Below, in pieces: positions 1 to 53,046 of a DNA stretch of 64,000 nt (position 1 is its first letter; every line of letters starts with the position of its first letter). The stretch spans positions 64,001 to 128,000 of IMG/VR virus record IMGVR_UViG_2882674194_000007; one strand, 5' to 3'. The DNA comes from a virus. Its lineage: Duplodnaviria > Caudoviricetes. The translations under genes were made by a program, and so were the position numbers. Under the pieces are notes generated by a model. That model worked only from the letters and a program-made list of their open reading frames with translations, made no database searches and was not told the origin of the DNA.

Positions 1-176
1 ATGGCAGAAAACCTGTTGATAATGGTGAATTTAGTAATGAATTTGAAATGTTTAATAATTTACGTATAGAATTTGATTTCAAAGAAGCAGTTCAATCTTT
101 TGTATATTTGGAAAATTTTATGGATAGAGTAATTGAGTTTCTTATGGATAAAGATTTGGATTGCGAAGCCAATTAA
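1..176 (+). CDS. Hypothetical protein, 5'-truncated by window edge
   Basis: Open frame ending in TAA 174-176, which lies inside the first repeat site. Confidence 0.55.
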   Translation, partial: GRKPVDNGEFSNEFEMFNNLRIEFDFKEAVQSFVYLENFMDRVIEFLMDKDLDCEAN

Positions 177-208
177 ATCTAAGTTTTAAGTTATATGGAG
201 GATGCAGA

Positions 209-736
209 ATGAAATATTATTTGTTTAATTATGATGATGTGAGTATGATGTATCATGATCGCGTTGTCCCTAAAGAAGAGATTATATGTGAATTTGAATT
301 TAATGGATTTACTTATTTTTTAAGCGATAAAGAAATTATTAATGTGAGTGCTACTCAACGGAGAAAATGCATTGAACAATTTTCAAAATGGATAAGACAA
401 TTTAATTTGAATAGAAAATATATTTTAAGATATAGTGATATTTGGCTATATGAGAGAGATTGTTATGAATTATTATCAGATTATTTAACTTGGGAAGCGA
501 ATAAGAATGGGGAGACTTATGCTGAAGTTATTTGCAAATCGGATAATTTGAAGGAAACTATTAATGAAATAATAAAATCTTTAGCAAAAGAGCGATTAGA
601 TGTACAGAGTAGGGATTTAATTATTGAAATAGAAAAAGGAATGAATGAAGATAAACTTGATGTTGAAAAAATAAGGGAAGAGGTACAGGAAGTAACCCAA
701 AAAATTTATAATAAAACTTTTGAATGGATTGATTAG
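209..736 (+). CDS. Hypothetical phage protein
   Basis: GGAGG RBS before ATG 209; bounded by sites 173 and 741. Confidence 0.7.
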   Translation: MKYYLFNYDDVSMMYHDRVVPKEEIICEFEFNGFTYFLSDKEIINVSATQRRKCIEQFSKWIRQFNLNRKYILRYSDIWLYERDCYELLSDYLTWEANKNGETYAEVICKSDNLKETINEIIKSLAKERLDVQSRDLIIEIEKGMNEDKLDVEKIREEVQEVTQKIYNKTFEWID

Positions 737-774
737 GCAATAAAATTAGATATTTAAGGAAGGGATGAGGATAA

Positions 775-1119
775 ATGGATAAAGAACAATTTATCAAATG
801 GAGAGAAAATGGTGGGAAAATTTATAAATATGTATATGAGGTCGAAGCAGGAAAAGAAGATTTAAGAAAAAGCGAATGTGAAGTAGACGCAGTTTATGAA
901 GACGGGTTTAAAACGTTCGGCTTTGGATATCATATCCCATTTGATTGCTTTGAAAAATGGAGAATGCAACATTGGAGTTCAAATTCATATGAATATTTTA
1001 TCTTCTTGACTAATGAACAGAACATATATGATTATTTGGGAGAAATAAAAAAATGTATTGCTGAAGGACTTCAAAAAGAAATAAGGGATTTGCAAAAATC
1101 ATTGGCATTAGTTGTATAA
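775..1119 (+). CDS. Hypothetical phage protein
   Basis: ORF with GAGG RBS after site 741. Confidence 0.7.
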   Translation: MDKEQFIKWRENGGKIYKYVYEVEAGKEDLRKSECEVDAVYEDGFKTFGFGYHIPFDCFEKWRMQHWSSNSYEYFIFLTNEQNIYDYLGEIKKCIAEGLQKEIRDLQKSLALVV

Positions 1120-1162
1120 TCAGCACGACAATGTGATATTTAACTAAATACATTAAGGTAGT

Positions 1163-1197
1163 AAAGCATTTGGAATTAAAATCCAGATGCTTTTTAT
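1163..1197 (+). terminator. Intrinsic terminator-like hairpin
   Basis: AAAGCATTTGGA / TCCAGATGCTTT followed by a T run. Confidence 0.6.
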
Positions 1198-3636: not shown

Positions 3637-3676
3637 TGTGTACTTGAAATCATCGTTTCAACTTGTGATACATAGT

Positions 3677-4002: not shown

Positions 4003-4005
4003 TCT

Positions 4006-4310: not shown

Positions 4311-4366
4311 GTTTTAAATGTAGAAATAATATGTAGAAGAAAAATTTGAAAGAAGGGATTTAAAAT

Positions 4367-5227: not shown

Positions 5228-5246
5228 TGTTGGAGGATAATTTGAC

Positions 5247-5810
5247 TTGTTAAGAGCAATAGAATTTACGGATAAACGTTTTAAAAAGGAAGAGGATTAT
5301 AATTTATTTAGTCCAATATCAAACAATTGTATTATTTTATGCAATAACTATAAATTGATGGATTCTCTTGCAAAAGAAATATTAGATACAGTCAATGGGA
5401 ATGCAGAGTATAATGTTTATGATTGTGATGATAAGGATATTGGAAATGCAAAAATGTGGTTGTCTTTCGGATTACAGAGAGTGATTGATATAAATGGTCA
5501 GAGAATTACATTATCGCTGGAACCGGCAATCATATATAAAGCTAATGATATAGAAGATATATGGTTGTTTTGCTATAGCGGAACAGATGAAATTGAAACA
5601 TTACCACCATATCAAGAATATATTTATCCTGTGTGCATCTTTAAAGGAAGTCGGAAGGTATGGGAAGATGGTAAAGATGAAGTTTATAAGATGATTTGTA
5701 ATGGAAGATATGGAACATATGATGGTAAATGGATTGATTTACATGGTGATCATTGGGAAGATGAAACTCATAATTGTATATCAAAAGTAAATATGCAATT
5801 AAATGATTGA
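5247..5810 (+). CDS. Hypothetical protein
   Basis: GGAGG RBS; stop codon lies in the spacer of site 5800. Confidence 0.65.
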   Translation: MLRAIEFTDKRFKKEEDYNLFSPISNNCIILCNNYKLMDSLAKEILDTVNGNAEYNVYDCDDKDIGNAKMWLSFGLQRVIDINGQRITLSLEPAIIYKANDIEDIWLFCYSGTDEIETLPPYQEYIYPVCIFKGSRKVWEDGKDEVYKMICNGRYGTYDGKWIDLHGDHWEDETHNCISKVNMQLND

Positions 5811-5828
5811 TTTTATTAGAACGGAGGA

Positions 5829-7061: not shown

Positions 7062-7073
7062 ACAGTTGAATAC

Positions 7074-7544
7074 TTGATTTTATTGGAGGTTTTAATGGAA
7101 GATAATTATACTGGCGATATGATTCTGATAGATAGATTATCAGAATTTTATCCTGTTAATAGTTGGTCATGGAATGAAGGCGAGGTTGTAGAACTTGATG
7201 ACATTGCTTGTGCAATTCATGAAGGACATCCAGAGGAATCAGAGCCGTTTGGTGATACATGGAAACATCCTTGTATGGAGAATAAATCTACTGAGTGGCA
7301 TATAGGAAGGATTTTATATTTTATAAAACATCCAGAGGAAATTAGAGATATAGAGGTTGATAATCTATACAGTGGAGATTATATTTTCCCTGTACCTTCA
7401 ATCATTGATGGAAACCATAGATTCATGGCAGCTATGTGGTTACAGGATCAAGGAAAGATGGGAAAAGTTCATTGTAGATATGGTGGTAGAATGGATTTGT
7501 TGGATTATCTGGTTGGGAAAACGGATGTGTGTCCCGATGAATAA
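7074..7544 (+). CDS. ParB/Srx-like domain protein (likely start ATG 7095)
   Basis: IIDGNHRFMAA motif. Confidence 0.65.
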   Translation: MILLEVLMEDNYTGDMILIDRLSEFYPVNSWSWNEGEVVELDDIACAIHEGHPEESEPFGDTWKHPCMENKSTEWHIGRILYFIKHPEEIRDIEVDNLYSGDYIFPVPSIIDGNHRFMAAMWLQDQGKMGKVHCRYGGRMDLLDYLVGKTDVCPDE

Positions 7545-7993: not shown

Positions 7994-8298
7994 TAGGCAA
8001 TAAATGTCTGATTTCAAGGAAGAATTGAGGTAAAATATATGAACTTAGTTGGAAAAGATGTTGCAATAATGCGTTTATGCATGGTAGGTAATACACCAAC
8101 AAAAGTAGATGAAGAATATATTGGAACAGCACTAAGAAAAGTGGTTAAAATTGTTCATGAATTTGATGATGGATTATTTTTGACTGATTTCTTTATGCCA
8201 GAACATATTGATAAGAAAAATGACTATTGTCATTATGGCTTTTTGGTGTTGGATCGACATAATTTTGAAACAATTAATTCTTAGAGAAGGTGGATAAT

Positions 8299-8516: not shown

Positions 8517-9691
8517 AAATATTTTGGAGGAAACGAATATGAAAAGGACAATAGAAGAATGTTTACAACGATGTGAAACAAAAGACTTTGATGAAACGAT
8601 GGTATCAGTTTGTGAATTGAGACGGGCTGTCGAGTGTATAAAAAAGTTGGACGTAATAAAGGAAAAAATAATTGAAATGATGGAAGATTTAGAAAATACC
8701 ACAAAAGAAAGACACATGAATGATTTAGAGTATGGAAGATATTCTGCTATGAGTGATGTTTTGAACTTGATTGATTAGGCAAGGAAATTCGATTTTCATT
8801 GGGGAGGGAATGAAATGTTATACGGTGTATATGTAAAAAGTGGTGACGAAAACAGTAAGCCACAAATGAGGATGCGATCTTCAAGTGATGCAAATTTCCT
8901 TTTTCGTAAGGGATGTGAAGCAGTATTTTTAAGTGAGATAGATGCTTTTGGATATGGTTTTGAACAATCTAAAATGAGAAAAATAGATTTTGATAGAAAT
9001 ATTATTGATATAGATGAGGATTAATATATGGACATGAATTATAAACCTAAATTTTATGATTGTATATTAGATGGAATAAGGAAAGAGGGTAGTAAGAATT
9101 TATTTCATCTGACAGAAAAAGAAACAGAAGGAAGAAATCAAATGCAGATTGAGGTGGATCAGCCTTCAGAATTGATTTTAGAAAGAATGAAGGAATGCAT
9201 TCTTGGGAAAAGAAAAATACTATATTTAACCAATGGAATGAGAGATATTAATGTATCTTATCTTGGAGATAATAAATGGCAGTTATTTGATGAGTTTGAT
9301 ATTTTTGAGTTTGAGATGTCGGTATAAGAGAAGTTAATGTTTTTTCGGAGGCAATTGTTGAAATGATTACTTGGAAATGTTTATATAAATTAGATGGTGA
9401 AGAACTGAGAGGAATAGTAAATGACATAAAAAATGGTGAAAGTTATACTGTTTCTGGATGGGAAGATACATATCCAACAGATAATGATATTTTGAAGTAT
9501 GCTGCCAGATGTGGTGTGAGGTGATTAGTGTGGGACAAGATAGAAAAATGAATAATCCTTCTTGGTGTTGTGAAAAGATAGAAGAATTACTACAAGAATA
9601 TAAAAATAAGCAAGAAGATTCTCATGATCCGGCAGAATATGAGACATATAAAGAAGTTATTGAAGATATAGAGAAGATTTTATATGAATGA

Positions 9692-10477: not shown

Positions 10478-10527
10478 ATGATAGTCTTGAAATCCGGTTT
10501 TCATAGCATGAATGGAGGAATAGGTAA

Positions 10528-11423: not shown

Positions 11424-12418
11424 TTATAATATTGGAGGTTAATAACATGAAAACAATTTGGTATGCTGTAGTTGATTCAATAGAAGTTCCAGATGATATG
11501 AGTGATCATGAAATCGATAATAAAATCAATGAAATAGCTGATGGTAAGGAAGTTATGTGGTCAGAAAAAGACGATCTTATTGATATTCGTCAATGGGATT
11601 AAAAATGCCAATAGAATGTTGCTTTTAAGAGGAAATGTGAGGTGTGATATGATGACTATTTTTGAAGCAAATAGTAAATTAATTGAAATTGGAAATGTAA
11701 TGATTGAAGAACATGGTTTACAATATTATATTGTTCCAAGAACAACACTTAAAGAGTCTAATATAGAATTATATAAACAGTCCTATGATAATGTGGAGGC
11801 TGCTTATGAGGTTGCATTGCAGTTGCCATCAAATTTTGGAATGGAGAGCGTCTAAATATGTTAATATTAAAAGGAAATGTAGGAAAATCGGTAGTATTAC
11901 AATCGCTTATAGAGTCTTATCCAGATTCATATACAATTGTGTATGACAAGGAACCTATTGCTACTATACCAACTTATTATGTATCATCAAAGGAATTTAA
12001 CTTAGAAGATTTGTGTGAGAGTATAAAAAGAGAAATCGAAAGTGAATGTAGATCAAGGTCAATGATTATTGTCTATACAAACCTTCATGAAAGTGAAATC
12101 GGTTGTATTAAATCCTTAGTGGAAAAATTTGAATCGGATCACTTCTGTAGGTGGGGTGTTGTAATGTGTAAGGAATAAATATAAGGAAAGTTGGTGATTC
12201 ATCTATGAATAAACTACCTAAAATTGGTGATTTATTATATGCTGAAAGTGGTTATTTAATTGTAAGGCATTTGAAAATCATAGCAATTGATAAAAAAGAA
12301 AATATCAGTGATAGTATTGTAACAGTAATTGGAAAATATGGAAGAAGATATAGTGAACCTTTATGGATGTTTGCTGGAATTGAGTAAATGAAATGCTGTT
12401 TTTAAGGAGCAGATTAAT

Positions 12419-12565: not shown

Positions 12566-12601
12566 GCAATGAAAGGCTGGTTTTAAGAAGGGGAGGAGAA
12601 A

Positions 12602-12742: not shown

Positions 12743-12784
12743 CTTCGAAATTCAAGTTTTAAGTAATGGACTGGTGGTGATATA

Positions 12785-14072: not shown

Positions 14073-14305
14073 GAGGAAATCTATATGGCAAAGAAAAATT
14101 ATTATTGTATTAAAGCGAGTAAAGGAAATGCATGTGATACTATTTCTTTTGAGAAAGATGAAGATGATATGATTTGTATTTGCATGGAAGGTGAAGAATT
14201 AAGGTTTACTGTAAAAGAAGCAAAAGAAATTGCGGATAAACTGAGAAAATGTGCGAATGAATAGAAATGAATGTTCAGTTTTATGATATATAGGAGAAAA
14301 TTAAT

Positions 14306-15420: not shown

Positions 15421-15751
15421 TAATATAGAAACCATAATTTTATCTTTTATAGTAGATAGTATAACATAGAAAAAGCCTTATTTCTACATTAAGAATATGG
15501 AAGTAATGGATAAAACTGTAATATGAACCGACACTCAAAAAATATAAAAGTGTGCAAAATAGGCACTTTCTCATACGGAAAACAAGATAAAATTATGGTT
15601 TCATTTTTTTAAAATATATGATTTCCTGAAAATGACGAAATGATGATTAAAATATGAAATAGGATATCAATAGTAAGATTTTTTGTAGAATAATTTGGTA
15701 GTGAAGTTTTAATTAAGAGTCCAGTTTAATGTACATGAAAAACGTTATTAT

Positions 15752-17208: not shown

Positions 17209-17212
17209 TTAT

Positions 17213-20223: not shown

Positions 20224-20790
20224 AGGAGGCTAAAATTATGTTGTATATGAGTAATGACAGAAAAGGTATTTTTAAAACTGAACAGGAATGTTATGAGTAT
20301 GAGCAACGGATCAAAAGAGAAAAAGAGAATGAAGAAAAATTGGAGAAGAAACGTCAGAGTAGATTGAATTCTATCAATAAAAAGTACGAAGATTTGCAGA
20401 AGGATATAGCTGAATATAAGAAAGATTATGGTACGAGGTTGGAAGGATATTTCACACCATTTCATGAACTTTTGAATATGCTGTATCGGTAAGTTAAAAG
20501 CCGCATTTCATCGGGAAATATGGAGGAAAAATGAAACAATACATAATTTATGAATGTGAAAATTGTGGTAAAAAATCCAAAGACAAAACTGAAATTATCA
20601 AGTGTGAAGCTGCTCATTTAAATCTTTCTGAAGATGAATATCAGAAATGGGAGGATTTGAAACAAAATGTTAGATATGCGTCCCATATTGTAAGTACCTG
20701 TAAGAATGAGCAGACTGATAAAGAATTTGACTATGCAATTGCTGAATTAATGAATTTTGAGAAGCTGCATAGGATAGAGGAGAATTAGTT

Positions 20791-21669: not shown

Positions 21670-22789
21670 TATGAATGAGTTTGATAAGTGTTATTTCTGT
21701 ACATGTTATGATAAATATGAAGGTTGTGAATGTGGATGTAATAATAAGTCTGGTTTCGATCCAGACCATGACAAAATTATTGCAAAGGCAAAAGAGAAGC
21801 ATATATCGGTGGCAGATGTAATTGCTTTAATGAATATTTGAGGTGGAAGAGTGAAAAGTGGAGATATTGTTATATACAGAGACGATGTAGGAACTGTGGT
21901 TACAGATTTTGAAAATAGAAAGATATTAAGATTTTTGCCTTGTAATTATGGTGTATATTCTACTTCAAGACTCAAAGTAATAACTGAGAACGATGTTAGA
22001 GAAGCAACACATGAGGAAAAACTTGACCTAATAAAAAGAGAATACCATTGGGGAAAAGTCTTAGAGATTCATTGTATTGGTGAATATCAGATTGTTGAGG
22101 CTATTAAAGATGATGGAAAAGTTCATTATCACGGATATATCAATTACAAAGATACCAATACAAGTTATTGTTCGTTGGATTCTGCTTTGGTTGGATGTAT
22201 AGGAAGAAAACATGAGGGTGGAAATGGAAATGCGGCAATGTATTTTTGCAAAATGATAGGCATTGGATAGTGATGAAACTAACATTTTAAGTTGGCGGCT
22301 GAAAGTTTGGTGTAAAGAGAAAGTTTTTAATGAAGAAGGTGTGGAATAGCCTAAAGTCATCCAGTTTTGAAAAATTAATTTCAACCGGAGAAAGGGATAT
22401 ATAGGATGAAAAAATCAGAATTGAAATCTGGAATGATTATTCAAACAACGCATAACAGATTTGGTGTAATAGAGTTAGAAAATAATCGTATTGATATTTG
22501 TTATGACCCAGATTCTATAGATAAAGTTTTAGAAAAGATTTCATTGGATGATATTTTTGAATATGGGGATGGACAATTAGGTATTGGATGTATTTTAGAT
22601 AAAGAAACAAAAGAGAGTTATCCTAATATGTATCGTAATTATGAAGTTGGCGAAAAGGTTATTTTTTATGAAATTGTAGCAATCTATAATTTGCAACAAA
22701 TATATTATAATGGTGAGGGGATATACCCATCAATAAAATTGCAATAATTATAGGAATGAAAATTTGATTTTGTGGTGTGAGGTGATAAG

Positions 22790-23146: not shown

Positions 23147-23409
23147 TCTACCAAATAGCAGATCAAAAGCATCCATTTATGGGACTATACAACAAGGTTT
23201 GTAAAACCCCTGTTTATTGGTGTCGATTACATCAAGTCTGGTTGTCTGATGATGATGTAAAGAAGAAACAATGTAAATGTAAACAGACTTTTGACATGGT
23301 TGGTACATATTGTTGCGGAAATTTAGTCAAGAAATCAATAAAATGAAACTTTTAAGAGGAGAAAAGAGAAATATTAAATTATAAAACAAAATGAAAAAGG
23401 AGAAAAATT

Positions 23410-24177: not shown

Positions 24178-24219
24178 ATCTTTGAATCTTGCGAGAATCT
24201 TTCGGATAGCCAGGAATTA

Positions 24220-25905: not shown

Positions 25906-26244
25906 AAGAGAGGTTCATTATGAATTACGAGGTAGAAGATCAGTATAACGTTTTTATCAAAGATGTAGAAACAGGTTTACTTTCTCACGAATTATATTTA
26001 AGAGAAGACGAGTACGAAGATGAATATTCTCACAGTGTGATTGATAGAGGACATGTATTATTATCTGAAAGAATTAGAAAATATCTACATGATAAATTAC
26101 CCAATCAGTATTGTGTATTTGTAGATTGGTGTGTTCGTGTTATGTCAGTAGAGATGGCAGAAAAGAAAAATATTAGCAATTATAAAAACTATATTGTTAA
26201 GTAGTTGAAACACGAGTTTCATAGATGAGGAGTGAGAAAGATAA

Positions 26245-26736: not shown

Positions 26737-27222
26737 ATCGAAGGTTTCAAGGAAGGAGCGTGAGTAATATTAAAGAAAATATGATTAAAACGCAAATAGG
26801 TAAAAATATATTTCATGAATATGATTCAAATTCACTTTTTGATCGAAATATAGAAGAATTTCATAATATGACAAAAGACCATACTGAAATTTTAGGTCAA
26901 TTTCTTGATTTTACAGCAATGAGTATAGAACAACTTAAAGAGTGTTTGTTAAGTGGTTATATACACATGGATAGAGGTAAGTTTATTAGCAGATGAATGA
27001 AACATTTCAACTGAGGAGGTAGATAAAGTGAAGCCTTGGGGAGGCAATGAACTTGATTATCGTGGATGTAAAATAAAGAATAATAAAAGAGAAAAATGCC
27101 TTTATATTTATGATAGTAAAGGAAATTTTCTCTTTAAAGTAGATAATTATAATCATGGAGCCATATCAAGTGCTAAAGAGTCTATTGATATTTTGATTAA
27201 AAGATATGAACAATTATAGAAT

Positions 27223-27333: not shown

Positions 27334-27791
27334 GTCGGTTTTCACTACAAAAATAAAACGGAGGATAATTTGAAATTAGAAAGACGTAAAAGTGTATGTG
27401 AGGAATACAGATGTGATTTGACTAAAGAATTAGATGATATGTCTGGTATCTCAAAACAACATTATTATGATATGTTCCATCATTATATATTAGCAGATGA
27501 ATGGTGTAAAAAAGAAAAATGTCTTGCTATCAGGGTTCCAGGAGGAACAGTTGGTGGTATTCATTTTAATGATAACAATACTATTACCAAAATAGTAATT
27601 GATATAGATTATGTTGTAAAAACATATCCATCTAATGTAAATGATCTAATTCAAAAGTATATTGGAGAAGTAATAGAGTGGTAAGCGGTTGAAATAAATC
27701 TTTCAAAGAAATAGAAATAGTAACTATAAAAACGAAAGGAGTAAGAGGTTTGCTGGCCAGCATGAAAGACTGTCTTTACTCCAAAATGTAA

Positions 27792-29414: not shown

Positions 29415-29923
29415 ATTCTGCTTGTGGTGAAGAAGATATATTGCTGGCAGCACTTAAATATCAACGCACAGAATACGCAAAGAAAATCAGAAAGGACTAT
29501 GAAGCAGGTAGAATTCAGGAACGTAGATGTAACATGAGAGAATATACTCTTAGGACAGATGGGCTTTGCAATACGATAACTACTGTTACGAAAGACAATT
29601 ATATAGCTGTTGGTGCTGCTATGCGTGGTAGATATAATTCTGATGGAAAAATAGAACAGCAGATAGAAGTAAGAGAAGATGAATTGTCTAATGCTATTAC
29701 AACTGTTCAGAAGGATAGTTTGGTTGTAGAGAAGAAGTCATGACTTGAAAAGAAATATGCAGAATTTTATGAAAAGCATGGTTATATTCCTGAGTATTTT
29801 GTTCCTTACAATGGAACTGAATGTACAGATTATGCACCAACTTTAACTGCAAATTCTAATACAAGTCCAACACATTCTGGAACAGTTTTGATTATGGAGA
29901 TTGGCAAAGAAAACAAGTCTTAA
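29411..29923 (+). pseudogene. Stand-alone methyltransferase TRD-like ORF with in-frame TGA at 29741-29743
   Basis: CNTITTVTKD, SNAITTVQKD, then APTLTANS after the TGA; ends at TAA in site 29921. Confidence 0.55.
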
Positions 29924-30328
29924 AACCCACGATTCAAGGATGGAGGAGGAAAGAAATTGAAAAAACTTGTTACAACACCGCTCCCTAATACGATTTGGTG
30001 GGCGAATGTAAATGAAGAAAAAGGAATTATAACTGGTGATAAAAAAGATGTTACTGATAATGCTATTGATGCTGTTTTTCAGCACTTAATAGGACAAGAA
30101 AAATTCAAGGAAACTGGATTTACTGGTTATCAAATACCCAAAAAGAATAGTGAAGAATATATAACTATGGCAGTTTTTAAGAGTAATACTCATGTGTGTC
30201 TCACAAAAGAAGTGTATGAGGAACTGAAGAATTATATGAGAATGTATGATGAATTGGTGACAAAAACAGGAATTACATAAATAGTCTTGAAATCTGCGAT
30301 TTATCGTGTGTGGAGGTGAATTTAGTGG

Positions 30329-31271: not shown

Positions 31272-32983
31272 TGCGCAGAAGAATAACGGGAAATATTTGT
31301 ACTGGTCTTGGTAATCCATCACCAGTAATTTTTGACAACGGATGGACAGGTAATGAAAAGTTCAATGAGACTGCGAAGCTATTTTTTGAAGACGCTCTAA
31401 ATTCATTAAAAGACGAAACTGTCAATGATGTTGGCGGTTTCGATTTTAAAATAGAATTAGAAGATAACAGATTTAGAATCTTATTTGGTATTGAACCATC
31501 ATATATGTATGATCCGTATATTTGTTATTACTTCGATAGCCAAAAAGAGAAAAGTTATATACATAAGGGACAGGCACTTGGATATTATGGTGCTGACATC
31601 AAAATTAAATCGAAGAAAAATTATAAAAAATGTGACAAAGAATTTAAAGAATGTATAGATGAGCATTGGGATAATTTGATGAGGTGTTTAAGTGAATAAT
31701 GGAATATTTGCAAATTATACAGGGATTCCAATAATAGTTGTTCCTGATAGCAAAAAGCAAAATAGAACGCATAAGAAAAAGAGAATAAATAAGAAGTGGG
31801 CCAAGAGATATGGTTATACAGTATACAATTCAATTGAAGATGAAAAGGTGATTACGATGAATGGAAGCATGTATGTAAATCCGAGAACTTATTATAAGCT
31901 AAAATCTCTTGAATTATATACTTAGAAATTCATTCTGTGTGGGAGGTGAATAATGAACTCAAAATATGAAAATATGTCTTTAAAAGAAATTATTAGACAG
32001 ATAGAAAAGAAGGATAAAAGAATTGCTGAGTTGGAGAAAAAAGTTTCTGATATGAATGACACCATCAGAACAATCGGTAATCAGAATCGTAAACTGAAAA
32101 GAAATAATGAAAGATATCAGGAACGATTAACAGAAGTTTTATATAAAGGTGAGATTAAGAATTGCTCAACATGTAAAAATAATGTTAAATTTCCTCCTCC
32201 TCATACTTGTGATATTTGTACCAGTTTAGACCAGGAAGAAGAATATGAGATGTGGGAGGAAAGGATTGAGATTAATTGATGCAGATAATTTAACAAAAGA
32301 AACAGAAAAATCTATGCATGACAATCCTCATAAAAATAGACAAATTTCTCAAAATCATTTAACAGAACATATTCATTTTTTGTCATTAATTGGAAGACAA
32401 TCAACAGTAACAGACGATAGAATTACGAAAGCATTGGAGTTTGTATGGAATTATGGTCAAATTGATGGAGATCATCATAAGACATGGGTTATTGATCAAA
32501 TTGTTAGAATTTTGTGTGGTAGTAATGAGGAATATAAAAAGTGGGTTGATAAATATGAAGAACCTTTAGAAGATGGTGATTATTACAGTTGGAATCAAGG
32601 TATCAATCCTTAAATCTTGCATTTTATAGGAGGAGAAAAAGAAGTTATGAGCATGGAAAGTCATTATTACGTTATAGCTGGTTATGATTTGACTGGAAAC
32701 GAAACAGATAAATTTAAGGATTGGAAGTGGTCAGATGAAGGAGAAGATTATATTTGCAACCAGTGCAAAGGCGAGATTCAATTTTTCGATGATCCAATGA
32801 GTGGTTCACATTTATATTTTGGATATGTTTTGGCTTCTGGTAATGAGTATAGTTTAGATACAGAAATGTTTGATGTGTCTGATATTGAAAAATGTTCTGG
32901 TAAGGTGAAAGCAGAATTGGTAAATCTTCAAGAACTGGGAGTGATTACAAAAAATCCACATTTTAAACCTGTGTTTAAGATTA

Positions 32984-36548: not shown

Positions 36549-36590
36549 CAGACATGAAATCGAGATTTTAAGGTAGAAAAGAGGTGATAG

Positions 36591-37712: not shown

Positions 37713-38724
37713 TTACAAAAGGAAATGAGATTAGGCTGATTAAGCCGATGGGAGTATTTGATAATATCGGAGAAGTTTGCGAAGTAACAGATGTATCAGA
37801 AGATGGTGTTATAAGTTTTAAATTTGGTGGCTGTCATCTTGGGTGTATGTCTTATAACGAATTTGAAAAGTATTTTGAATTAGTAAAGAAGGAAGTACCA
37901 GAAGAAAAAAGTGATGAAGATGCTGATTCTATGACAGAAAATAAAGAAGTGTATGAATTAATTGAGTGGTGTAAAGAGAATGATAAACCATTTTATCCAA
38001 AGTTGTATTTGAATGTACTGGAAAAGAGAAATAGTATTACACAGTCGATTCTTGGAATGTATAAAAATAGATTGTGTTTGGTGCAATTTAAGAATAAAAC
38101 TTTTAAGGATTCAGATTTTAGCGGATTAAAGATTTTGATTTAATTAGAAAAACATACACTTGACTATCTACCAGAGTGTTCAATCACTCAATCAGATAAA
38201 TTTCGTTGTTTTCATTTTAACCTCTTTTTTGGGAATGTTCAAGTTTGTGGCTTGAGCATTCTGATAGATGGTCAAGTGTGGAAGATGAAGGTGAAAAATA
38301 TGAACAAAGCTAAGAAATATTATGTAGATGAAAGAAAAAATATGATTGGTTATATAAGAAATTATGGGTTTGAAAAAGTAGAAAAGCCAGCAAAAATGTT
38401 TCATGCTAAATTAAAAATTAGCAAAGTTGGATGGTTGAATGAAGGTTTCTATTTTATATTAGAAGATGAAAATGGCAAAACGTATTCTATGAATGATGTT
38501 TTATTTAGAGAGTACATTGAAGTAAACGATGTTTTTATTGAAGGAGATTGGAACTTTTATCAGCAAGGAACGGCATTTAGTATTGGGTTATGACACGTTG
38601 AAAAATCTGTTTCAAAGGGAGTTATCAACTCATAACTGGTGATCTCCATTCGTGAGATAGTTGCCTTACCAATTCTAACGACTCACTTCAAACGGTAGAA
38701 AATCAGCGTTTACGACAGGCGGTA

Positions 38725-39878: not shown

Positions 39879-40925
39879 CATTGTAATGAAAAAATACAAA
39901 GAGAAATATAAAACAGGAATGATCTTCAGAAGTAAGAAATACCCCTGGGCAGACATTATAATTGATTATGTTAGTTATAATCGTATGGCTGAAAATTCTT
40001 ATGAGTTCAATACATATTCGATTATTGACTGGCATAGAGCGAATGGTATTGAGTTTGACAAATTCGTATGTAGAAGAAAAGGTTATGATTATAATCCAGA
40101 AGAAGATGGACGAATGGACTTTAGAGATAAAACAACATTCCCATATCCTTCTTGGGGAGAGATGAAACCTAAGTCAATGGATGCTTATATCAAAAAGTAT
40201 GAACTTGAATATGTAGGAATGAGTGATAGAGAAATAACAATATATCAAGATGACGAAGTTGAGTATTCATCTGGATTTAAGAATAAATAAGCAAGAAAAT
40301 TTTCATTTTATTAGTTTAGGAGAAGAAAAAAGATGAATATAGATAGGGATGATCCGAATAGAAATTATTTTCTAAATTTGTTTAGAAATATTGTTAAAAA
40401 GGATGATGGTTATTGTCTACAAAAGGTTTACGAAGAAGATGAAAACGGAAATATTAGGCAAACAGATGTGAGTAAATCTAATAGATATGAAAACCAATAT
40501 TCCAAGAATTGCTATCGTTGTACATACAGTAATAATAAAAGTTGTTTACTTAGAACAAAGTTAGAAGGTTGCTCTGAAAATAATTTTATTCCTTTTGATT
40601 GGGTAGGAAACTGTGATGCTTATTCTCCTATATATCCCTTAAGAATAATTAAATCAGAAAAAGAGATGATTGACTTTATTGAAATAGTGAAAACCTTCTT
40701 TGAATGTCCAGAAGAATATGAATCTTATTTTGGTTTTAAAAGAAAATGGGATGAAGAAACTGGTGAGATTTTAGAAACAACAAAAGAATATTACGATAGA
40801 GGCGGTAGGTTTAATAATATTCCTGATAAGTTTCCTTGTGTAATTTATTTTGGTATTGTAGATTTTAATGGAGAAAGAATGAGTAATAAGAAATTGAATT
40901 GGATTTATGTGGGAGAAGAGAGTTA

Positions 40926-42541: not shown

Positions 42542-43659
42542 TTTCCCTTGGAAACAACTCTTTTATTGCCAAAATGGGAGGTAATATGTGTAAATTATCT
42601 GATGATGAATTGTGGGAGAAATGTAAAGAAGGTGGCAGTATTACACCAGAAGATTTAGGGTTAAAAAATCTTAATTCTAACGATTCATTTTACTGGACGG
42701 AGGGTATAAGGTATGAAGACAAGTGAACAGATTTTAAATGAAATACAATCAGCAATACAATTAAATAAAAATGCAAAAGCAAAATGTAATACAGCTTTAA
42801 CAGATGCAATTAGTTTGATTTTACATAATGAAAAAGAATTGCAAAATCGTTTAGATGAAGAATATAAACGTGGTTTGAATGATGCATGGGAGATTGCTAA
42901 AGAAGTATTTGACGATCGTAACTATTGTGCAATTTTAAATGTTTTTGAGTATGATTCGACTCTTGCTGAAGTGATTAGAAATCATAATCCTATAGAAGTT
43001 AAAAAGAAAATTTTAGCATATAAGGAAGAGCAAGAAAAGATTCGTGCTGGCGATGTGGTACAGGATAATAATGATGGTACAAAAGCAACCATACTTGATT
43101 ATGATGCAGAGACTTCCTTAGAAGATGAGCGATATTGGATGGTGTACACAGAAAATAGATGTGTTGAAAGTTGGTGTGAGAATACTTTTACTAAAACTGG
43201 TGAATCGGTAGATGTATGTAATGCTTTAATTAAATAATATAAAATTGAGGTGGTTAAATGAAACAGACAAGAACAAGAGTAAAGAAATTGATTAGCCCAA
43301 GTGATTTTAGATATGCAGCAAGGCAATATAGGGATTATGCAATAGCCAAAGAAATGCAAGATGATTTAAAAATAATGGCATATACAGCACTTGGAAATCT
43401 TGAATTTGATATTCAAGAATCTAAAGAAAAAACAAATTTTGGAGTTGTAGGAAAAGAGAAAAAATATAATTGGTTTTGTTATGTAAAAGAAAGAGGATAT
43501 ATGTTCTTTTCTGAATCAGAAATAGGATTGTATTGCCAAATTATTGAACATATTGTAGGTAATCAGTTATATATACCATTTAACTAATAGTCTTGAAATT
43601 TTGCTTTTATCGGTTGAGCAAGAAATATAAAAAATAAATCAAAAAGGAGAAAGAAATTT

Positions 43660-44984: not shown

Positions 44985-45032
44985 GTCTTAAAACCAGAGT
45001 TTCATTGGCAAAAATTTGATAGAAAGGACAAT

Positions 45033-47733: not shown

Positions 47734-48375
47734 TTAAAATCTTGGTTTCATTTGATGGGAGATGATAAGTATTAAAATAATATTTTTCTCAATTTTACAT
47801 ATTGCTTGTGTTGTAATTTATAGTCTTAATGCAAAATTAAGTAATAAAAAATCAGGAAAAATTTTATGGACAATTGGTGCATTGTGTTGGGGTGTAAATA
47901 TAATTTGGGATATTGTAAAAATTTATTTAATGATTAATGGATAAGGAGAACTGATATATATGGCATTAACAAAGAAGCAAGAGAAACAAATTAAAAAATC
48001 AATTCAAAAGATATTAGAAGAAGTTAAATTTCAAGGATTGAAGTCTGGTGCTGCTGGTATACTTGGAGCGGTTTTAGAAATGTGCAATAGTGGCAAGTCG
48101 GACGAGGATATTGTTAAGGAAATTAAGGGATTCTGTGAGAAATCGTTGAATATGGATGGGATGAAAACTAATTGAAAAGGAGAACAATATATTGAAAGTA
48201 AAATTTATAGATAATGTAGATATCAGTGGCAAGATCAATATTAATAAAGGTGAAACTTTTGAAGCAAGAGAAGATGGTGATTTCATCATGATTCGCATGA
48301 AAGATGATAGCACAGTTAAAGCACCGAAATCTGAAATCGAAGGAATTTTGGAAATTGTGGAAGGAGAATAAATAA

Positions 48376-48594
48376 TTGGAGTGGATCAAATGTATTTCTG
48401 GTCAAATGCCAGAAGATGATGAAAGATATAAAGGTAAAAAAGTTATTAATGTTATTGCCACCACTAATAAAGGGGTTGTTACGAAGGTACAAAGGATTTT
48501 TAATGATTATGCTAACATTTGGTATTGGGGAAGGATATGTGGAGGTATGAGGGCATGGATGCCGTTGCCTGAGCCATACAAAGAGAAGCATTGA
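48376..48594 (+). CDS. DUF551 family phage protein
   Basis: MEWI...AWMPLPEP. Confidence 0.8.
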   Translation: MEWIKCISGQMPEDDERYKGKKVINVIATTNKGVVTKVQRIFNDYANIWYWGRICGGMRAWMPLPEPYKEKH

Positions 48595-49557
48595 ATGCAC
48601 GATTTCAAGGTTAAAAAAGAGGTGAAAAATATAAATTTATTCAAATTAATTAAAGAATACATAAGTAAAGAAATTAAAGTTTTGGATAAACAACTTGATT
48701 ATTATAATAGACTATCAGAAGAAGAAAAGTATCACATTGAAACAGGTAAAGAATTCAATAAACTAGTTGCAGAATATCCGATTTCACAAGAAGAATTATT
48801 TGATATGAATAAAGTGTTATGTGAATATGTTTTGAGAACACGAAATACTGACATAAAAAAATATTTTTTCATTAATGATGATATGGTAAGACTTCCATTC
48901 ATGCTCAATGGTTTATGTTATGACCAAATCAATATGATTATTTCTGATTTGCTTAGAGAAATGAATATTGATGAAAAAGGTAATAATGTTTTGATTGGTG
49001 GTACTGAGGAATATGAAAATAACTGGAAATATGAAATCGGAGAAAATTATGGTCTTCAAAAGGCAATTAGAATAATTAAAAAGTATTGGAAGGAGAATAT
49101 ATAAATGGATTGTAAATATCCGGTTAAAAGTAGAAGTTATAAAGCGTGTGTATTGTGTTCTGATAAAAATATATGTGAAAATTCAACTATCGTAAATAAT
49201 GCAACAACACTACTGTCTGCAAGTGAAGCGCATAAAAAGACAACAGATAATATTAGAGATTGTTTAACAAAAGAATTATCAGAAATCAGTAAAAGAATCA
49301 GTGATGCTATCGCAAATGGTAAGTTCTATATTAATGGTGATGGCTGCTTACAATATGAAACAACTCAAAGATTAGAAGAACTTGGCTATAAAGTCAAAAC
49401 TGGAAATCAATATAACGAAGATCATTGGAATATTAGTTGGAATAACGGTTGAAACCGAAATTTTATGGAAGAAAATGTTTGCAAAACAGAAAAATAAGTA
49501 ATGAAAGGTAAAGATAATCCTAGGTAAAAAGTAATGTACATTACACTCAGGTAAAGA

Positions 49558-50880
49558 GTGAATCCAATTTTTAATGAATATCTCACATTTTTGCGAGATA
49601 CAAGTGGTAAACAATTATTTGAACTAAAAGAAGGCTACTTTTGGTTAGATAATCAGATTATAAAAGGGTTTGATAAGCAAGGGAATATACATAAGTTCTA
49701 TCGTATTAAAATTTCGGATTTGTTAGTGGTGACAATTGATAAACCCCAAAATGGATACGAAAACATTAAAGATATAGACTTGGCGAGTTGGAATGATTTG
49801 ATTGAGATGAATAAATCTCATTTGGAGAATATAGAAAACGAAGCAAAGCAACTCATCATAGATAAGATGAATAAATTTGATGAATATACACCATTGGTTC
49901 CTGTGAGCATGGGTAAAGATTCGCAAGTTACTTGTCATTTAGTGAGAGAATGTTGTCCAGATACAAAAGCCATTTTCAATAATACAACCCTTGACTGCGC
50001 TGATACATATTCTATGGCTAAGAAATTTCCAAACTGTGAAATGATGACTCCAAAGCAAGGATTTTATCAATATATAAAAGAAGCTCAGATGATACCTACA
50101 AGGTTTTCAAGATTCTGTTGCCGAATTTTTAAGGTTGGAGAAATGGTAAATCAGTTGGATCACAATGCTCTATATTTGATGTTTATGGGTATGAGAAATG
50201 AAGAAAGTAATACCAGAAGTGGATATGGTGATGAATGGGTGAATGAAGCCGAATGGGGAGATACAAAATGGCAAGGAATTTTACCTATTAGAACATGGTC
50301 AGAATTAGATGTGTGGTTATATACATTATGGCGTGGTATTGAGATAAATCCAAAATATAAGAAGGGATATGCGAGAGTTGGTTGCCATATAGCCTGTCCA
50401 TACTACACGAAATCTACATGGGTTCTTGATAAATATTGGTATCCTACCATGAGGACAAGGTGGGAAGACATTTTGAGAGACGATTTTATTAAGAATAAGA
50501 AGTGGATCGTAATAAATTGTACTCTTGAAGAATATCTAAATGTGGCTTGGAATGGTGGTGCTTACAGAGAAGAACCTACTAAGGAAGTTATAGAGGAATT
50601 CGCAAGATATAACGGATTAGATGTAGGAGATACGAAGGTAGCAGCACAGTATTTTAATAAATATTGTTCTAATGGATGTAAATCTAGGTCTGGGAAACTA
50701 AAGAAAATTAAAGACAGAGATACCATTTCTATGAATATGAAATTCCACGGAAGAGAAATTGATAAGTTTTTGTGTAAGAAGTGTTTTATGGAACTTTATA
50801 AGATGGATGAGAATAAGTGGAACTGGTGGATAGAAAGATTTAAGCAAGACAGATGTGCTTTGTTTACAGATATAGAATAG
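49558..50880 (+). CDS. PAPS reductase family (PP-loop) protein
   Basis: SMGKDS; RFCCRIFK; GMRNEES..R; RVGC..CP; single-gene unit between sites 49450 and 50893. Confidence 0.85.
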   Translation: MNPIFNEYLTFLRDTSGKQLFELKEGYFWLDNQIIKGFDKQGNIHKFYRIKISDLLVVTIDKPQNGYENIKDIDLASWNDLIEMNKSHLENIENEAKQLIIDKMNKFDEYTPLVPVSMGKDSQVTCHLVRECCPDTKAIFNNTTLDCADTYSMAKKFPNCEMMTPKQGFYQYIKEAQMIPTRFSRFCCRIFKVGEMVNQLDHNALYLMFMGMRNEESNTRSGYGDEWVNEAEWGDTKWQGILPIRTWSELDVWLYTLWRGIEINPKYKKGYARVGCHIACPYYTKSTWVLDKYWYPTMRTRWEDILRDDFIKNKKWIVINCTLEEYLNVAWNGGAYREEPTKEVIEEFARYNGLDVGDTKVAAQYFNKYCSNGCKSRSGKLKKIKDRDTISMNMKFHGREIDKFLCKKCFMELYKMDENKWNWWIERFKQDRCALFTDIE

Positions 50881-51221
50881 TAAAAATATCAATGAAAGCG
50901 TTCTTTCATTGGGATAAGTTGGAGGTAAATTAGTGTTCAGAAATAAATATATAAAACCATTAACAAAGGGTCAGCTTAGTAAATTACATGGACAAGACAT
51001 AAGAGTACATTTTTTGAGTAATGAGTATACAAGCGATAGAATTTGGAAAGTTAGGTTGGATAAAAACACTGTTGTGATTACAGATAATAAAGGTGATTAC
51101 AGAGCATTTGATAATTATAAAAAACATTATAATGAATCTACAGTAGGATCAGGCGTGTTAGTTTATAGGTTGCCACAAATTCCACATGATATTGAATGGT
51201 AGGAGGTAAAAATAAATTAAA

Positions 51222-51482
51222 ATGAATAGAGATATAGGTGCTAAATTACCACAAACAAATTGTAGAACACCAATGCCACCTGTAAAGGAATTTGGTGAAA
51301 AAATTTGTGAGAATTGTGATAAAGAAGATGTGTGTATGTATAAAGAAGAGTGCATGAAAGCTATAAAGGATATTTTGGATATTGAGAGTAGAACTAATGT
51401 GTTTATTAAAACACATATTGATTGTAAGAAGTGGAGCAAGAAATCATCTGCGGTTAATATGAATGATATTTTATACAGATGA
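51222..51482 (+). CDS. Cys-rich hypothetical protein, paralogue of 39540..39878
   Basis: Shared sequence; stop codon lies in site 51480. Confidence 0.7.
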   Translation: MNRDIGAKLPQTNCRTPMPPVKEFGEKICENCDKEDVCMYKEECMKAIKDILDIESRTNVFIKTHIDCKKWSKKSSAVNMNDILYR

Positions 51483-51803
51483 ATTGTCACTTTCGTTGAA
51501 AAATTTGAGGTATAAAACAATGAGTAAACTATCAAAAAAGGATATAGAAGAATTAAGAGATATTCTTTCTCTTGTATGTGATTACGCAGATACAAAAACA
51601 GTTGTTTATGAGACTGTTGATAAAACACTCCAAGAGTTAGGTTCTGATTTAGGCATAGAATGTATGTTGATAACTGATGGAGAATACGAAGGAAGTATTG
51701 GCTTGGAAGAGTTTGTTGATAAATTTTATTCAAATATAATTGAAAATGTTTTAAATGTTGTTGCTACACAGTGAAATCAAAACAAAAAAGGAGAAAAGAT
51801 ATA

Positions 51804-52172
51804 ATGAGAAAATTAAACACAATTCAGAAGGTAGAGAACTTAAACATCGTAAAGGCAATTGATGAAAGAGGAAGTGGTAATGCAAATCATCTTTATAAAA
51901 TTGAAGCAATTGTTCCTGATGATGAAGATATTCCATTTACACTTATCCAGTTTCAGAATGGAGCTAGAAAAGATCCAGAAGCAATTACAGGAATTATTGA
52001 TACAGATTTGTTAGAGATTGTTCGTGATCGTTTAAAAGGATTCCAGAGTGGTAATTTTGCAACTGAAGATAATGCAGAGGCTTTAAAACATATCGAAATT
52101 GCTCTTATGTATATGAATAAGAGAGTTATGGATCGGTATGAGAGAAATGTTTTAGGAACATATGAGAAGTAA
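51804..52172 (+). CDS. tad1: Tad1 anti-Thoeris/anti-CBASS nucleotide sponge homologue
   Basis: MRKLNTIQK..., IQFQNGARK, DLLEIVRDRL..FQ.G.F, RNVLGT match the clostridial Tad1 sequence as I recall it. Confidence 0.82.
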   Translation: MRKLNTIQKVENLNIVKAIDERGSGNANHLYKIEAIVPDDEDIPFTLIQFQNGARKDPEAITGIIDTDLLEIVRDRLKGFQSGNFATEDNAEALKHIEIALMYMNKRVMDRYERNVLGTYEK

Positions 52173-53046
52173 AAAAGAGATAGATGATAAAATAATGAAA
52201 TATACAAAATCTAATGTAGAAATTACTTGTAGTAATGTTGGTGTAAAAGCTGGTTCGTGGCAATGTGATTTGTGTATATTAAAAAATAATTGTGGTGCTT
52301 TAAAGGAAGTGAAGCGTAAAAATATGTCTTGAAATTCTTATTTTATTGGGTGAGTTTGGAGGTGATATAAAATAGTTTGGAAAGCATTATATATGGCTAT
52401 GCAATATGTTCCTGATGATAAAAAGGAAGAAATAAGAAGAAAAATCTGTGAAAATTGCAAATATAACAATGGAGAAGAACAGTTAGCTTGTTGTTATTGT
52501 CAGGAAGGTAGTTTGTTTGAAGAAAGAGAGAAAAAGAAAATACCTCGTGGTAATAGAAGGAAAGCGCCGATCATTGAGCAGAATGAATCAGATTGTAGTC
52601 CAGAACTTAAATGGGATTGTAAATCTTGTATTTGTAGAGATTGCGAAGATAGATTTGAATGTGATGGAGGCAATACAGTAATGGGATGTGGAATGTGATG
52701 TGATACATAATAGAATTTAAAACAAGCAAAAGAATAGATAAATGGGTAGAAAAACATATAAAACAAAGTTGTGTATCTCGTGCAACAGCAGGTGAACAGT
52801 TTGTATATGAATTTTTACCAAGTGGCATTGTAGAGTGTCAAACAGTCAAATGTATGTGTTGTAATGAAGAATTTACTGATTATGTAGATTGAAAAGAGAA
52901 AAGGAGAAATATACATATGGGATTAACATGTAAACCAGTAGGCAAAATGAGAAGTATCACAAGAAAGTTAGAGAATCAGTTGGCAGAGGAAGCAAAGTTA
53001 CAGAAAGAGAAAAAAGGAAAAGAAAGCAGATAAGAGGTAGGTAGTT

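Follow-up and report, generated by a model that had tools for sequence, protein, structure and literature searches.

Ordered palindromic sites with private centres mark the gene-exchange joints of a large SPbeta-like prophage

How can unrelated genes replace one another at clean boundaries in mosaic phage genomes? The debate over the modular theory offers two answers: chance illegitimate joints filtered by selection, or conserved "linker" sequences at which modules are joined. We have taken up the question in a single stretch of DNA from a virus of the Caudoviricetes, positions 64,001 to 128,000 of the IMG/VR record IMGVR_UViG_2882674194_000007 (64,000 nucleotides, "the window" in what follows), along which a 16-bp palindrome of the form TGAAA-N6-TTTCA, two inverted arms around a 6-bp centre, recurs at gene junctions. 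An earlier note, written from the sequence alone, had noticed these sites and read them as an integron-like array of gene cassettes. The observation is confirmed here; the interpretation is partly supported, and what we put in its place is an array in which the sites stay put and the genes between them change.

Is the site real? The exact palindrome occurs eight times in the window against 0.53 expected from dinucleotide shuffles (the largest shuffled count was 3), and the same arms set 5 or 7 bp apart occur in it not at all, so the 6-bp spacing is strict. Together, the shuffles and the two zero counts rule out chance or base composition as the source of the palindromes. Of the 27 exact palindromes of the whole 4.82-Mb assembly, 14 lie on a single 177-kb contig, of which the window is bases 64153-128152. 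A weight matrix with the consensus W-T[G/A]AA[A/T]-N6-[T/A]TT[C/T]A-W scores at least 10 bits at 50 of the 161 co-oriented + strand junctions of the prophage, where shuffled junction DNA gives 1.9 (largest 5), an enrichment that is partly circular because the matrix was trained on the sites themselves; the exact-palindrome count is independent. At this threshold, 40 junction sites stand in the window, where some 41 had first been counted. An exact palindrome at 1673 is not one of them: it lies within an open reading frame (ORF) and has flanks conserved among relatives, and with another in-ORF matrix match, at 7410, it serves as an internal control, each of the two having a single flank type.

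The sites had been described as lying at or just after stop codons and before the next ribosome-binding site (RBS), and it is to the stop that they are tied. Taking + strand ORFs of 46 aa or more, 32 of the 40 sites begin between -3 and +12 nt from a stop, in a zone that makes up 4.3% of window positions (binomial p ~1e-36). The distance to the next start runs from 0 to ~110 nt; such variation ties the site to the upstream stop, that is, to the 3' end of a gene unit, and not to the RBS. Site 4347 is not stop-anchored but covers an RBS, and relatives have the same sequence around it, so that it does not count as a joint. Consecutive sites do bracket gene units, as had been proposed, and the array is real, although the limits first given to it (173-52345) are too narrow: sites continue on the same contig from window -11.6 kb to 0 and from +65 to +76 kb, and in the late - strand block, they stand at 6 of 54 junctions, with 0.9 expected. 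As had been described for the regulatory block and the replication operon, no junction sites stand at 16-20.4 kb or at 54-64 kb, just weak in-ORF matches.

The inside of the site is equally orderly. Inverted half-sites of 5-7 bp flank the strict 6-bp centre, the layout of a tyrosine-recombinase core site, as had been pointed out. Position 6 avoids A (5 of 55 sites) and position 11 avoids T (3 of 55), a symmetric avoidance such as one expects of a protein dimer on duplex DNA. That all spacers differ proved to hold on a larger scale: among 118 prophage sites of at least 9 bits, no centre is palindromic and every centre is different, save for one inverted pair, to which we return below.

Where do these sites live? 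G+C is 30-34% over the first ~150 kb of the contig and 50-53% over the final 27 kb, which in this respect is like the assembly (47.6% overall). The low-GC part is a large SPbeta-like prophage of ~150 kb, with late genes on the - strand (contig 1-47 kb), a long co-oriented + strand arm (contig 49-141 kb) and SPbeta-like gene content (DnaB, a PolIII-alpha-type polymerase, a Sak4-like protein, SSB, and YonG/PcfJ-type proteins). A 409-aa tyrosine integrase gene is found at the right prophage end/host junction (contig C133 147801-148973), G+C steps from ~32% to ~51% at contig ~149-150 kb, outside the window, and the late genes include a further recombinase, of 317 aa (contig 30.9-31.4 kb, - strand). 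A GenBank search yielded no near-identical phage. Relatives were found as Lachnospiraceae prophages (Acetatifactor muris DSM 23669, strains A4 and MD308) and in mouse- and human-gut metagenomes; through exact-protein look-ups plus IMG/VR or GTDB scans, we gathered more than 25 related phage and prophage loci, covering window -12 to +17 kb and 26-53 kb, and compared their flanks without gaps.

It is in this comparison that the sites reveal themselves. Of the 95 sites found in nine relatives, 63 share their centre with a site of this prophage (3.2% expected), and the matched centres are collinear, running ...TCATCG, GATTGA, ACTTGA, GTCTGA, TTCGAT, TCCGGT, TGTTGC, TGCTGT, GGCTGG... An independent set at 26-47 kb, drawn from relatives whose polynucleotide kinase (PNK)/ligase is at least 90% identical, adds 39 further centre matches. 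Matching by centre hid no diverged orthologues, since, over the stretches set against loci L021 and L037/L054, no window site is without a same-centre counterpart. One-base centre variants are barely above chance, which puts the divergence of the centre at ~1.6%, against 14% (88/630) for the arms, a roughly 10-fold difference (Fisher p 2.5e-14). This is the opposite of what the earlier note had expected by analogy with Tn916, where heterologous coupling sequences are tolerated, and such conservation suggests that the identity of the centre matters.

Over the 63 matched sites, identity is at random level (35-40%) from -3 leftwards and from +19 rightwards, and at 52 of them, the sequence is unrelated on both sides, leaving the site as an isolated island of ~20 nt. 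Likewise, 44 of the 52 slots seen in at least three genomes have two or more left plus two or more right flank types; at slot TAATAG, ten genomes show ten of each. The genes between the same two centres vary among relatives in number, size and sequence, as in the GATTGA-ACTTGA interval, where this prophage has genes of 175 and 234 aa and L037 has one of 91 aa, with no protein similarity. Where homology is one-sided, 51 of 61 junctions break at site positions -4..+5 or 14..21, and arm mismatches number 5 of 60 beside a homologous flank versus 19 of 60 beside a foreign one (p 0.0025). The variable arm positions, in other words, travel with the adjacent flank, so that crossovers often fell between the two arms; gene gain, loss and replacement in relatives have their breakpoints at or inside the 16-bp site, a check that the earlier note had proposed for gain, loss and reordering. 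At slot GATTGA, a single left flank continues into three different right flanks, and these in turn occur behind other left flanks; a strict four-gamete test finds no slot with all four combinations in the present sampling and 12 slots with three of the four. Conserved centres, swapped flanks and breakpoints at the site together lead us to conclude that the sites are recurrent, nucleotide-precise recombination joints.

A second clade repeats the pattern in its own terms. Composed of IMG/VR contigs and GenBank MT835469 (human faeces), with a recombinase ~38-40% identical to the one encoded here, it has its own collinear series of centres, slots that some members have and others lack, and cargo that varies. 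Relatives further removed retain the motif and not the centres; those further removed still lack the motif. One distant relative without the palindrome, L030 (IMGVR_UViG_2920951204_000001), has the sequence GAGAATA directly after many stop codons, which may be the counterpart element of that lineage.

Should one, then, still speak of an integron? The resemblance is easy to see: arrays of small, co-oriented and mostly promoterless accessory genes, often with defence cargo, stop codons that overlap recombination-type sites, a tyrosine recombinase encoded nearby, integron integrase among that protein's structural matches, and claimed examples of phage-borne integrons (PMC9892861). A true integron, however, would have an IntI-type integrase, an attI and attC-bearing cassettes, and attC is a folded single strand that travels with its cassette and inserts at one attI. 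Here, the NCBIfam integron-integrase models give 16.7-17.6 bits against cut-offs of 265 and 435, no single attI/Pc platform is seen, the arms show no hairpin covariation, and the sites are fixed slots that keep their order while the cargo changes, so that the idea of a cassette carrying its own site does not stand. We regard a true integron as having next to no chance of being the answer.

The same missing covariation bears on an RNA element, by which we mean a hairpin in the polycistronic mRNA for processing, stability or translation. The sites do lie on the sense strand between a stop and the next RBS, and perfect copies fold (-3 to -9 kcal/mol), but degenerate copies, at about -0.5 kcal/mol, are unfolded, the uncompensated pair A2-C15 occurs 12 times versus 7 for the compensated A2-T15 (Fisher p 0.39), T5-T12 occurs 11 times versus once for T5-A12, the uncompensated form again being the commoner, and an Rfam scan finds no family at the sites. 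Nor would a hairpin loop explain conservation slot by slot, and we think this reading very improbable. Two simpler candidates were rejected outright. A sigma-70-type promoter fails because no -10 element recurs at a constant distance and because an RBS often starts 3-12 nt after the site, which leaves no room for a promoter; an intrinsic terminator fails for want of a G+C-rich stem with a T-run, the hairpins being weak and the arms free of covariation.

What enzyme might work at such sites? The earlier note had proposed to express gene 4367-5227 with a two-site reporter, and the gene does encode a tyrosine recombinase. R49, K79/K82, H171-x-x-R174, H201 and Y210, the full catalytic set, are invariant in nine homologues (39-90% identity). 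An AlphaFold2 (AF2) model (predicted local-distance difference test, pLDDT, 84) has the tyrosine-recombinase catalytic-domain fold, and the top Foldseek matches are XerA, IntI, XerH(-difH), lambda Int and Tn1549 Int (probability 1.0, template-modelling score ~0.45). By sequence, PDB chains give no match to the protein, and BLASTP against YopR, YopP and YomM of SPbeta finds no similarity. There is no N-terminal core-binding domain, only ~45 residues preceding the first catalytic Arg, and some homologues have an unrelated ~90-aa N-terminal extension; the missing domain would fit arms of just 5-7 bp. One relative, L091, has a mosaic recombinase (8362-9363) with a C-terminal tail near-identical to that of the 4367-5227 protein, a catalytic core just ~40% identical and an extra ~90-aa N-terminal domain.

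This gene and the motif keep company. Among the IMG/VR loci, 15 encode a homologue, and each of the 15 has the TGAAA motif, at densities of 2.9-11 sites per 10 kb and with up to 10 exact palindromes per 21 kb, and the enrichment is found in every such phage, down to 37% recombinase identity. Low-GC prophage loci with a 67-95% homologue, from isolate genomes and metagenome-assembled genomes, are likewise enriched; the homologue in Acetatifactor muris DSM 23669 is 95% identical. MT835469, found via its polymerase and not via its recombinase, has both homologue and enrichment; four large relatives found via their PAPS reductase have neither. For phages of the TGAAA type, these patterns of co-occurrence favour the 4367-5227 protein as the enzyme. 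It is our most likely candidate for the protein that acts on the sites, a proposal that we put forward tentatively and at rather less than even chances; another phage recombinase or a host Xer-type recombinase may do the work instead.

The one exception to the rule that centres are private deserves its own description. CCATAA (15427) and TTATGG (15588) are the only centre shared within the prophage, and they are inverted, 161 bp apart, conserved in relatives, and embedded in a perfect 19-nt inverted repeat (15428-15446 / 15584-15602) that flanks 137 bp (15447-15583) in a 780-bp non-coding region beside a helix-turn-helix (HTH) repressor-like gene. By its layout, the 137-bp segment is a candidate invertible switch. 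Recombinases of the FimB/FimE type are ~200 aa long, have no large N-terminal domain and act on short inverted repeats; the pair has the layout of their switches, whereas most of the sites are not in inverted pairs, and no inversion has been observed. A 180-kb contig that ends near the repeat was considered as a possible inversion and turned out to be another mosaic joint. Divergent from the repressor-like gene (15752-15994, -) lies a MazF/PemK-like toxin gene (16147-16575), and the repressor protein is unchanged in 119 blocks of a public contig collection, mouse-gut metagenomes included.

How might all of this work? Cre, FLP, lambda Int and Xer are tyrosine recombinases that treat the overlap region as needing a match between partners. 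The core-site layout, a centre that is the most variable part within a genome and the most conserved between genomes, and arms that travel with their flanks argue for a site-directed, centre-matched process. We picture the sites as crossover points along the accessory arm of this SPbeta-like Lachnospiraceae prophage, each fixed in place and marked by an address code. The inverted arms (W-TGAAA / TTTCA-W) would be bound by a tyrosine-recombinase dimer, and strands would be cut and exchanged within the 6-bp overlap between them; binding, cleavage at the centre and the need for centre identity are all things that we infer from sequence. With a different, non-palindromic overlap at each site, the sites of one genome would not recombine with each other, and deletions and inversions would be avoided, while sites with the same overlap could recombine between related phages that share a cell, be it a superinfecting phage and a prophage or two phages in co-infection. 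A single exchange would swap whole genome arms; two exchanges at neighbouring addresses would swap one gene unit in register and leave gene order intact.

Such an outcome would be nature's version of what heterospecific lox/FRT sites achieve in recombinase-mediated cassette exchange. Those sites are man-made, with 13-bp arms and 8-bp spacers, and only sites with the same spacer recombine; the likeness lies in identical arms with differing spacers and in the exchange of segments in register without deletion, the difference in that dependence on centre identity is here deduced from conservation. That same-centre sites of co-resident phages undergo site-specific exchange through a tyrosine recombinase is a proposition to which we give an even chance. 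The fuller claim is that SPbeta-like phages possess a dedicated, previously undescribed system in which ordered heterospecific core sites and a minimal tyrosine recombinase exchange accessory genes slot by slot, with no need of flanking homology and no disturbance of gene order; to this we give slightly less.

A number of observations weigh against that proposal and should be set out together. SPbeta itself (SPBc2, NC_001884) has 34 copies of TAAAA-N6-TTTTA, with 1.8 expected, mostly just after gene ends, and it has no detectable member of the 4367-5227 recombinase family, from which it follows that the enzyme may be something else common to these phages or their hosts. Locus L100 encodes a 68% homologue in 53%-GC DNA without sites, and the co-occurrence described above covers few independent lineages. 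A given cargo gene may occupy one slot in one phage and another slot in the next, relatives have gained and lost slots, and one breakpoint, at the start codon at window 5245, has no site; same-address exchange cannot, for these reasons, be the sole process. For the inverted pair, no inverted allele was found: of 34 contigs holding the repeat, the 7 informative ones are all in the window orientation, and an IMG/VR search with two junction-spanning patterns for the inversion returned nothing, the control pattern included. Finally, 4-5-bp arms in inverted layout around N6 are also typical of operators for small HTH repressors, and one such repressor is encoded at 15752-15994. Of separate interest is locus L102, a 4-kb low-GC remnant that encodes a 71% homologue and keeps two sites.

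Suppose, then, that the palindrome is the operator of a dimeric regulator and that short-homology recombination does the shuffling. The regulator could be the 80-aa HTH repressor or a recombinase-fold protein that acts in the manner of MrpR (YopR) of SPbeta, which has the tyrosine-recombinase fold, has lost the catalytic residues and binds a repeated intergenic element, SPBRE (PMC10516654). The phage group is the same, and so is the idea of a repeated intergenic element bound by a protein of this fold; SPBRE, however, is non-palindromic, is ~22 nt long and stands at ~10 promoters, and MrpR is not detectably similar to the 4367-5227 protein, which co-occurs with the sites and, unlike MrpR (PMC10516654), keeps its catalytic residues invariant. 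As for the palindrome being SPBRE, this was rejected, the element recovered upstream of ten MrpR-bound genes (ACAAATACAAA..AATATGTATA) being unrelated; the 34 palindromes of SPbeta are likewise distinct from the published SPBRE.

On this regulatory account, a site after each gene unit would block read-through, much as the stoperators of mycobacteriophage L5 do, where repressors bind more than 20 intergenic sites (PMC9283540), and many junctions of the early arm do have a site after the stop, while the late arm has few sites. Stoperators of L5 and Cluster A (PMC9283540, PMC6550527) resemble the present sites as many copies of a short site in the short intergenic gaps of a temperate phage genome. 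They are nevertheless 13-mers that lack symmetry, point along the direction of transcription and are bound by a repressor monomer, with no variable centre and no described role as crossover addresses, whereas the site found here is palindromic with symmetric constraints. The replication operon, which would also need silencing, has no junction sites.

The recombination half of the account would fall to annealing by the Sak4-like protein and SSB, both encoded here, which would use 16-20 bp of identity for relaxed homologous exchange, as has been proposed for the PeSLs of T4-type phages; the site could serve because it is the sole sequence common to otherwise unrelated neighbours. In SPbeta, the gene yorG is annotated as encoding a Sak4-like ssDNA-annealing protein. 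PeSLs, short intergenic repeats in the hyperplastic regions of large T4-type phages, mediate module shuffling (PMC2839356, PMC4122927) and, like our sites, lie at the points of insertion, deletion and replacement of non-essential genes. They are promoter and terminator composites that are all alike, recombine mutually by homology and can form mini-circles; by contrast, the sites here are 16-20 bp, have no promoter or terminator beside them, and have a private centre that is retained among relatives. Exchange driven by homology would likewise stay in register and favour conserved centres, given that 16-20 bp of identity exists only at the same-slot site, and the finding that SPbeta has such sites without this recombinase family speaks for it as well. 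But a dimeric regulator reads no 6-bp centre, and yet the centre is the part far better conserved than the arms; moreover, the shared identity is often just ~18-20 bp, which is little for homologous recombination that would have to recur at dozens of slots. All told, we judge a regulator combined with short-homology recombination to be a serious rival, less probable than centre-matched exchange but more probable than any of the remaining alternatives.

The host might also supply the enzyme. A Xer-type recombinase could use the sites as is thought for the pdif sites of Acinetobacter plasmids, where XerC/XerD sites flank adaptive modules (PMC6449649), and gene 4367-5227 would then have nothing to do with them. 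A 6-bp centre with inverted arms does recall dif-type sites, the arm varies with host group (TAAAA in the Bacillus phage SPbeta, TGAAA in Lachnospiraceae phages), and SPbeta lacks the phage recombinase family. Like pdif, these are many short sites of inverted-arm, 6-bp-centre design in an accessory region, with the same modules turning up in different replicons; pdif, however, has ~11-bp XerC/XerD arms, relies on host enzymes and bounds modules that are regarded as mobile, whereas here, in a phage, the two arms are alike and 5-7 bp long, the unique centres are fixed and ordered, and it is the cargo that changes and not the site. Related phages that lack the phage gene also lack the motif (IMG/VR contigs from comparable samples, hosts not identified), and the host chromosome, with 13 exact palindromes in 4.65 Mb, shows no enrichment. 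To our knowledge, the arms are also unlike the Firmicutes dif sequence, and we hold the host-enzyme explanation to be improbable. Judged by likeness, the closest natural analogues of the array are pdif/dif modules and PeSLs, and the closest functional analogue is engineered heterospecific lox/FRT exchange. A literature search turned up no account of sites of this kind in phages of the SPbeta type.

What do the slots hold? Largely conflict genes: toxin-antitoxin pairs, GmrSD-like proteins, an Acb2/Tad1-like sponge, tRNA repair enzymes, a methylase and a diversity-generating retroelement (DGR), with a NACHT protein in a relative's cargo. A Phd/YefM-YoeB toxin-antitoxin pair (window 3751-4260) lies directly upstream of the recombinase gene and is absent in some relatives (L079). 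Three proteins of one accessory arm have a GmrSD_N (DUF262) domain (2186-3223, 5829-6356 and 18850-20223). The candidate anti-defence sponge is a small Acb2/Tad1-hairpin-like protein (window 51771-52172) in one slot. In L021, a 666-aa NACHT/NB-ARC-like protein (4737-6737) follows the TTCTTA slot and replaces genes found here. A Thg1-like tRNA-His guanylyltransferase (window 20791-21669) and a 742-aa protein that combines kinase, phosphatase and T4-type RNA-ligase domains in one chain (window 34266-36494) look like a tRNA-repair kit, one that would probably be directed against host anticodon nucleases.

Further observations concern repeats and RNA genes. The DGR (window 23339-26221), bracketed by two junction sites, has an RVT_1 reverse transcriptase (24868-25905) and a 79-nt repeat pair (24080-24158 / 24670-24748, 81% identity). 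A 238-nt segment recurs at 83% identity in two slots of this genome (39629-39866 / 51242-51479), where it yields paralogous small genes. Two adjacent tRNA genes (window 17137-17286, Rfam 62 and 66 bits), in the block without junction sites, are all that the Rfam scan returned.

Table. Junction sites and associated genes, in window coordinates.
Feature	Position	Strand	Particulars
Junction site, centre TCATCG	3645..3660		18.6 bits; 8 nt past stop; same centre in 7 relatives, at least 4 left flanks
Site, centre GAAGGG	4347..4362		11.8 bits; overlaps RBS of recombinase gene, ends 4 nt before ATG at 4367
Catalytic-domain-only tyrosine recombinase (P0001), 286 aa	4367..5227	+	Pfam Phage_integrase PF00589, 39 bits
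Junction site, centre GATTGA	5800..5815		10.7 bits; 10 relatives; 5 left/8 right flank types in 12 genomes
Junction site, centre ACTTGA	7067..7082		12.6 bits; 5 nt past stop; 11 relatives; 7 left/7 right flank types
Junction site, centre GTCTGA	8001..8016		13.4 bits; 7 nt past stop; 8 relatives
Junction site, centre TTCGAT	8783..8798		12.8 bits; 4 nt past stop; 5 relatives
Junction site, centre TCCGGT	10488..10503		Exact palindrome, 16.5 bits; 10 relatives; 9 left/10 right flank types
Junction site, centre TGTTGC	11612..11627		11.1 bits; 9 nt past stop of 56-aa ORF; 8 relatives
Junction site, centre TGCTGT	12389..12404		14.9 bits; 1 nt past stop; 5 relatives
Junction site, centre GGCTGG	12570..12585		16.9 bits; 4 nt past stop of 48-aa ORF; 5 relatives
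Junction site, centre TTCAAG	12746..12761		10.8 bits; TTCTAG in relatives, among the few one-base centre variants
Junction site, centre GTTCAG	14268..14283		13.2 bits; 3 nt past stop; 2 relatives
Junction site, centre GTGAAA	14727..14742		11.3 bits; 4 nt past stop; 5 relatives
Site, centre CCATAA	15427..15442		Left member of sole same-centre (inverted) pair
Site, centre TTATGG (reverse complement of CCATAA)	15588..15603		Right member of inverted pair
HTH_3 (XRE-type) repressor-like gene, 80 aa	15752..15994	-	PHROG repressor families, Pfam HTH_3; candidate binder under the regulator explanation
Junction site, centre GCCGCA	20495..20510		16.2 bits; 2 nt past stop
Junction site, centre CTAACA	22274..22289		14.2 bits; 3 nt past stop
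Junction site, centre AATTAA	22368..22383		Exact palindrome; next start 22 nt downstream
Junction site, centre ATTTGA	22757..22772		10.8 bits; 9 nt past stop
Junction site, centre TGAAAC	23339..23354		12.7 bits; upstream edge of DGR unit
Junction site, centre CACGAG	26206..26221		Exact palindrome, 16.9 bits; 1 nt past stop; downstream edge of DGR unit
Junction site, centre CGAAGG	26734..26749		12.5 bits; left arm holds stop; 3 relatives; 4 left/4 right flank types
Junction site, centre GAAACA	26994..27009		12.7 bits; left arm holds stop; 3 relatives, every flank different
Junction site, centre TAAATC	27690..27705		Exact palindrome; upstream of DNA methylase unit, likewise in L055 and L148
Junction site, centre CCCACG	29921..29936		Downstream of methylase unit; L055 homology stops inside right arm; also in L148, L168
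Junction site, centre TCTGCG	30288..30303		13.8 bits; 6 relatives; 4 left/4 right flank types
Junction site, centre CTTGCA	32611..32626		11.7 bits; left arm holds stop; 1 relative
Junction site, centre TCGAGA	36555..36570		15.2 bits; after PNK/RNA-ligase gene; 6 relatives
Junction site, centre AATCTG	38599..38614		Exact palindrome; 5 nt past stop, 110 nt before next start; 2 relatives
Junction site, centre TTTTCA	40295..40310		11.4 bits; 4 nt past stop
Junction site, centre CAACTC	42550..42565		13.1 bits; 5 relatives
Junction site, centre TTTTGC	43594..43609		16.1 bits; 6 nt past stop; 1 relative
Junction site, centre CCAGAG	44989..45004		15.8 bits; 5 relatives
Junction site, centre GGTTAA	47129..47144		Left arm holds stop; L021 homology begins 2 nt before site, upstream genes unrelated
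Junction site, centre TCTTGG	47735..47750		L021 homology stops a few nt past site (first break: site position 21)
Junction site, centre GCACGA	48592..48607		Same centre in L021, other cargo on either side
Junction site, centre CCGAAA	49450..49465		Left edge of PAPS-reductase homology block common to L021
Junction site, centre GCGTTC	50893..50908		Exact palindrome; right edge of PAPS-reductase block
Junction site, centre TGTCAC	51480..51495		Same centre in L021, different cargo
Junction site, centre TTCTTA	52330..52345		Same centre in L021 and in more distant L028
Sak4-like AAA_24 annealing protein and SSB	54371..55851	+	Pfam; enzymes that short-homology exchange would use

The clean swapping of unrelated genes at boundaries in mosaic phage genomes can thus be seen here at its joints, at nucleotide resolution, with the same ~20-bp islands recurring in dozens of genomes, each at a conserved address. 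Should a regulator's site prove to double as a minimal patch of homology, this would still be the clearest case so far of linker-mediated modular exchange. If instead a recombinase reads the sites, they would represent a new class of gene-exchange device that acts on the defence and counter-defence genes of gut phages and is apparently also present in the model phage SPbeta. That would make dozens of orthogonal recombination sites ready for genome engineering, and it would give the "linker" idea of modular phage evolution a molecular basis.

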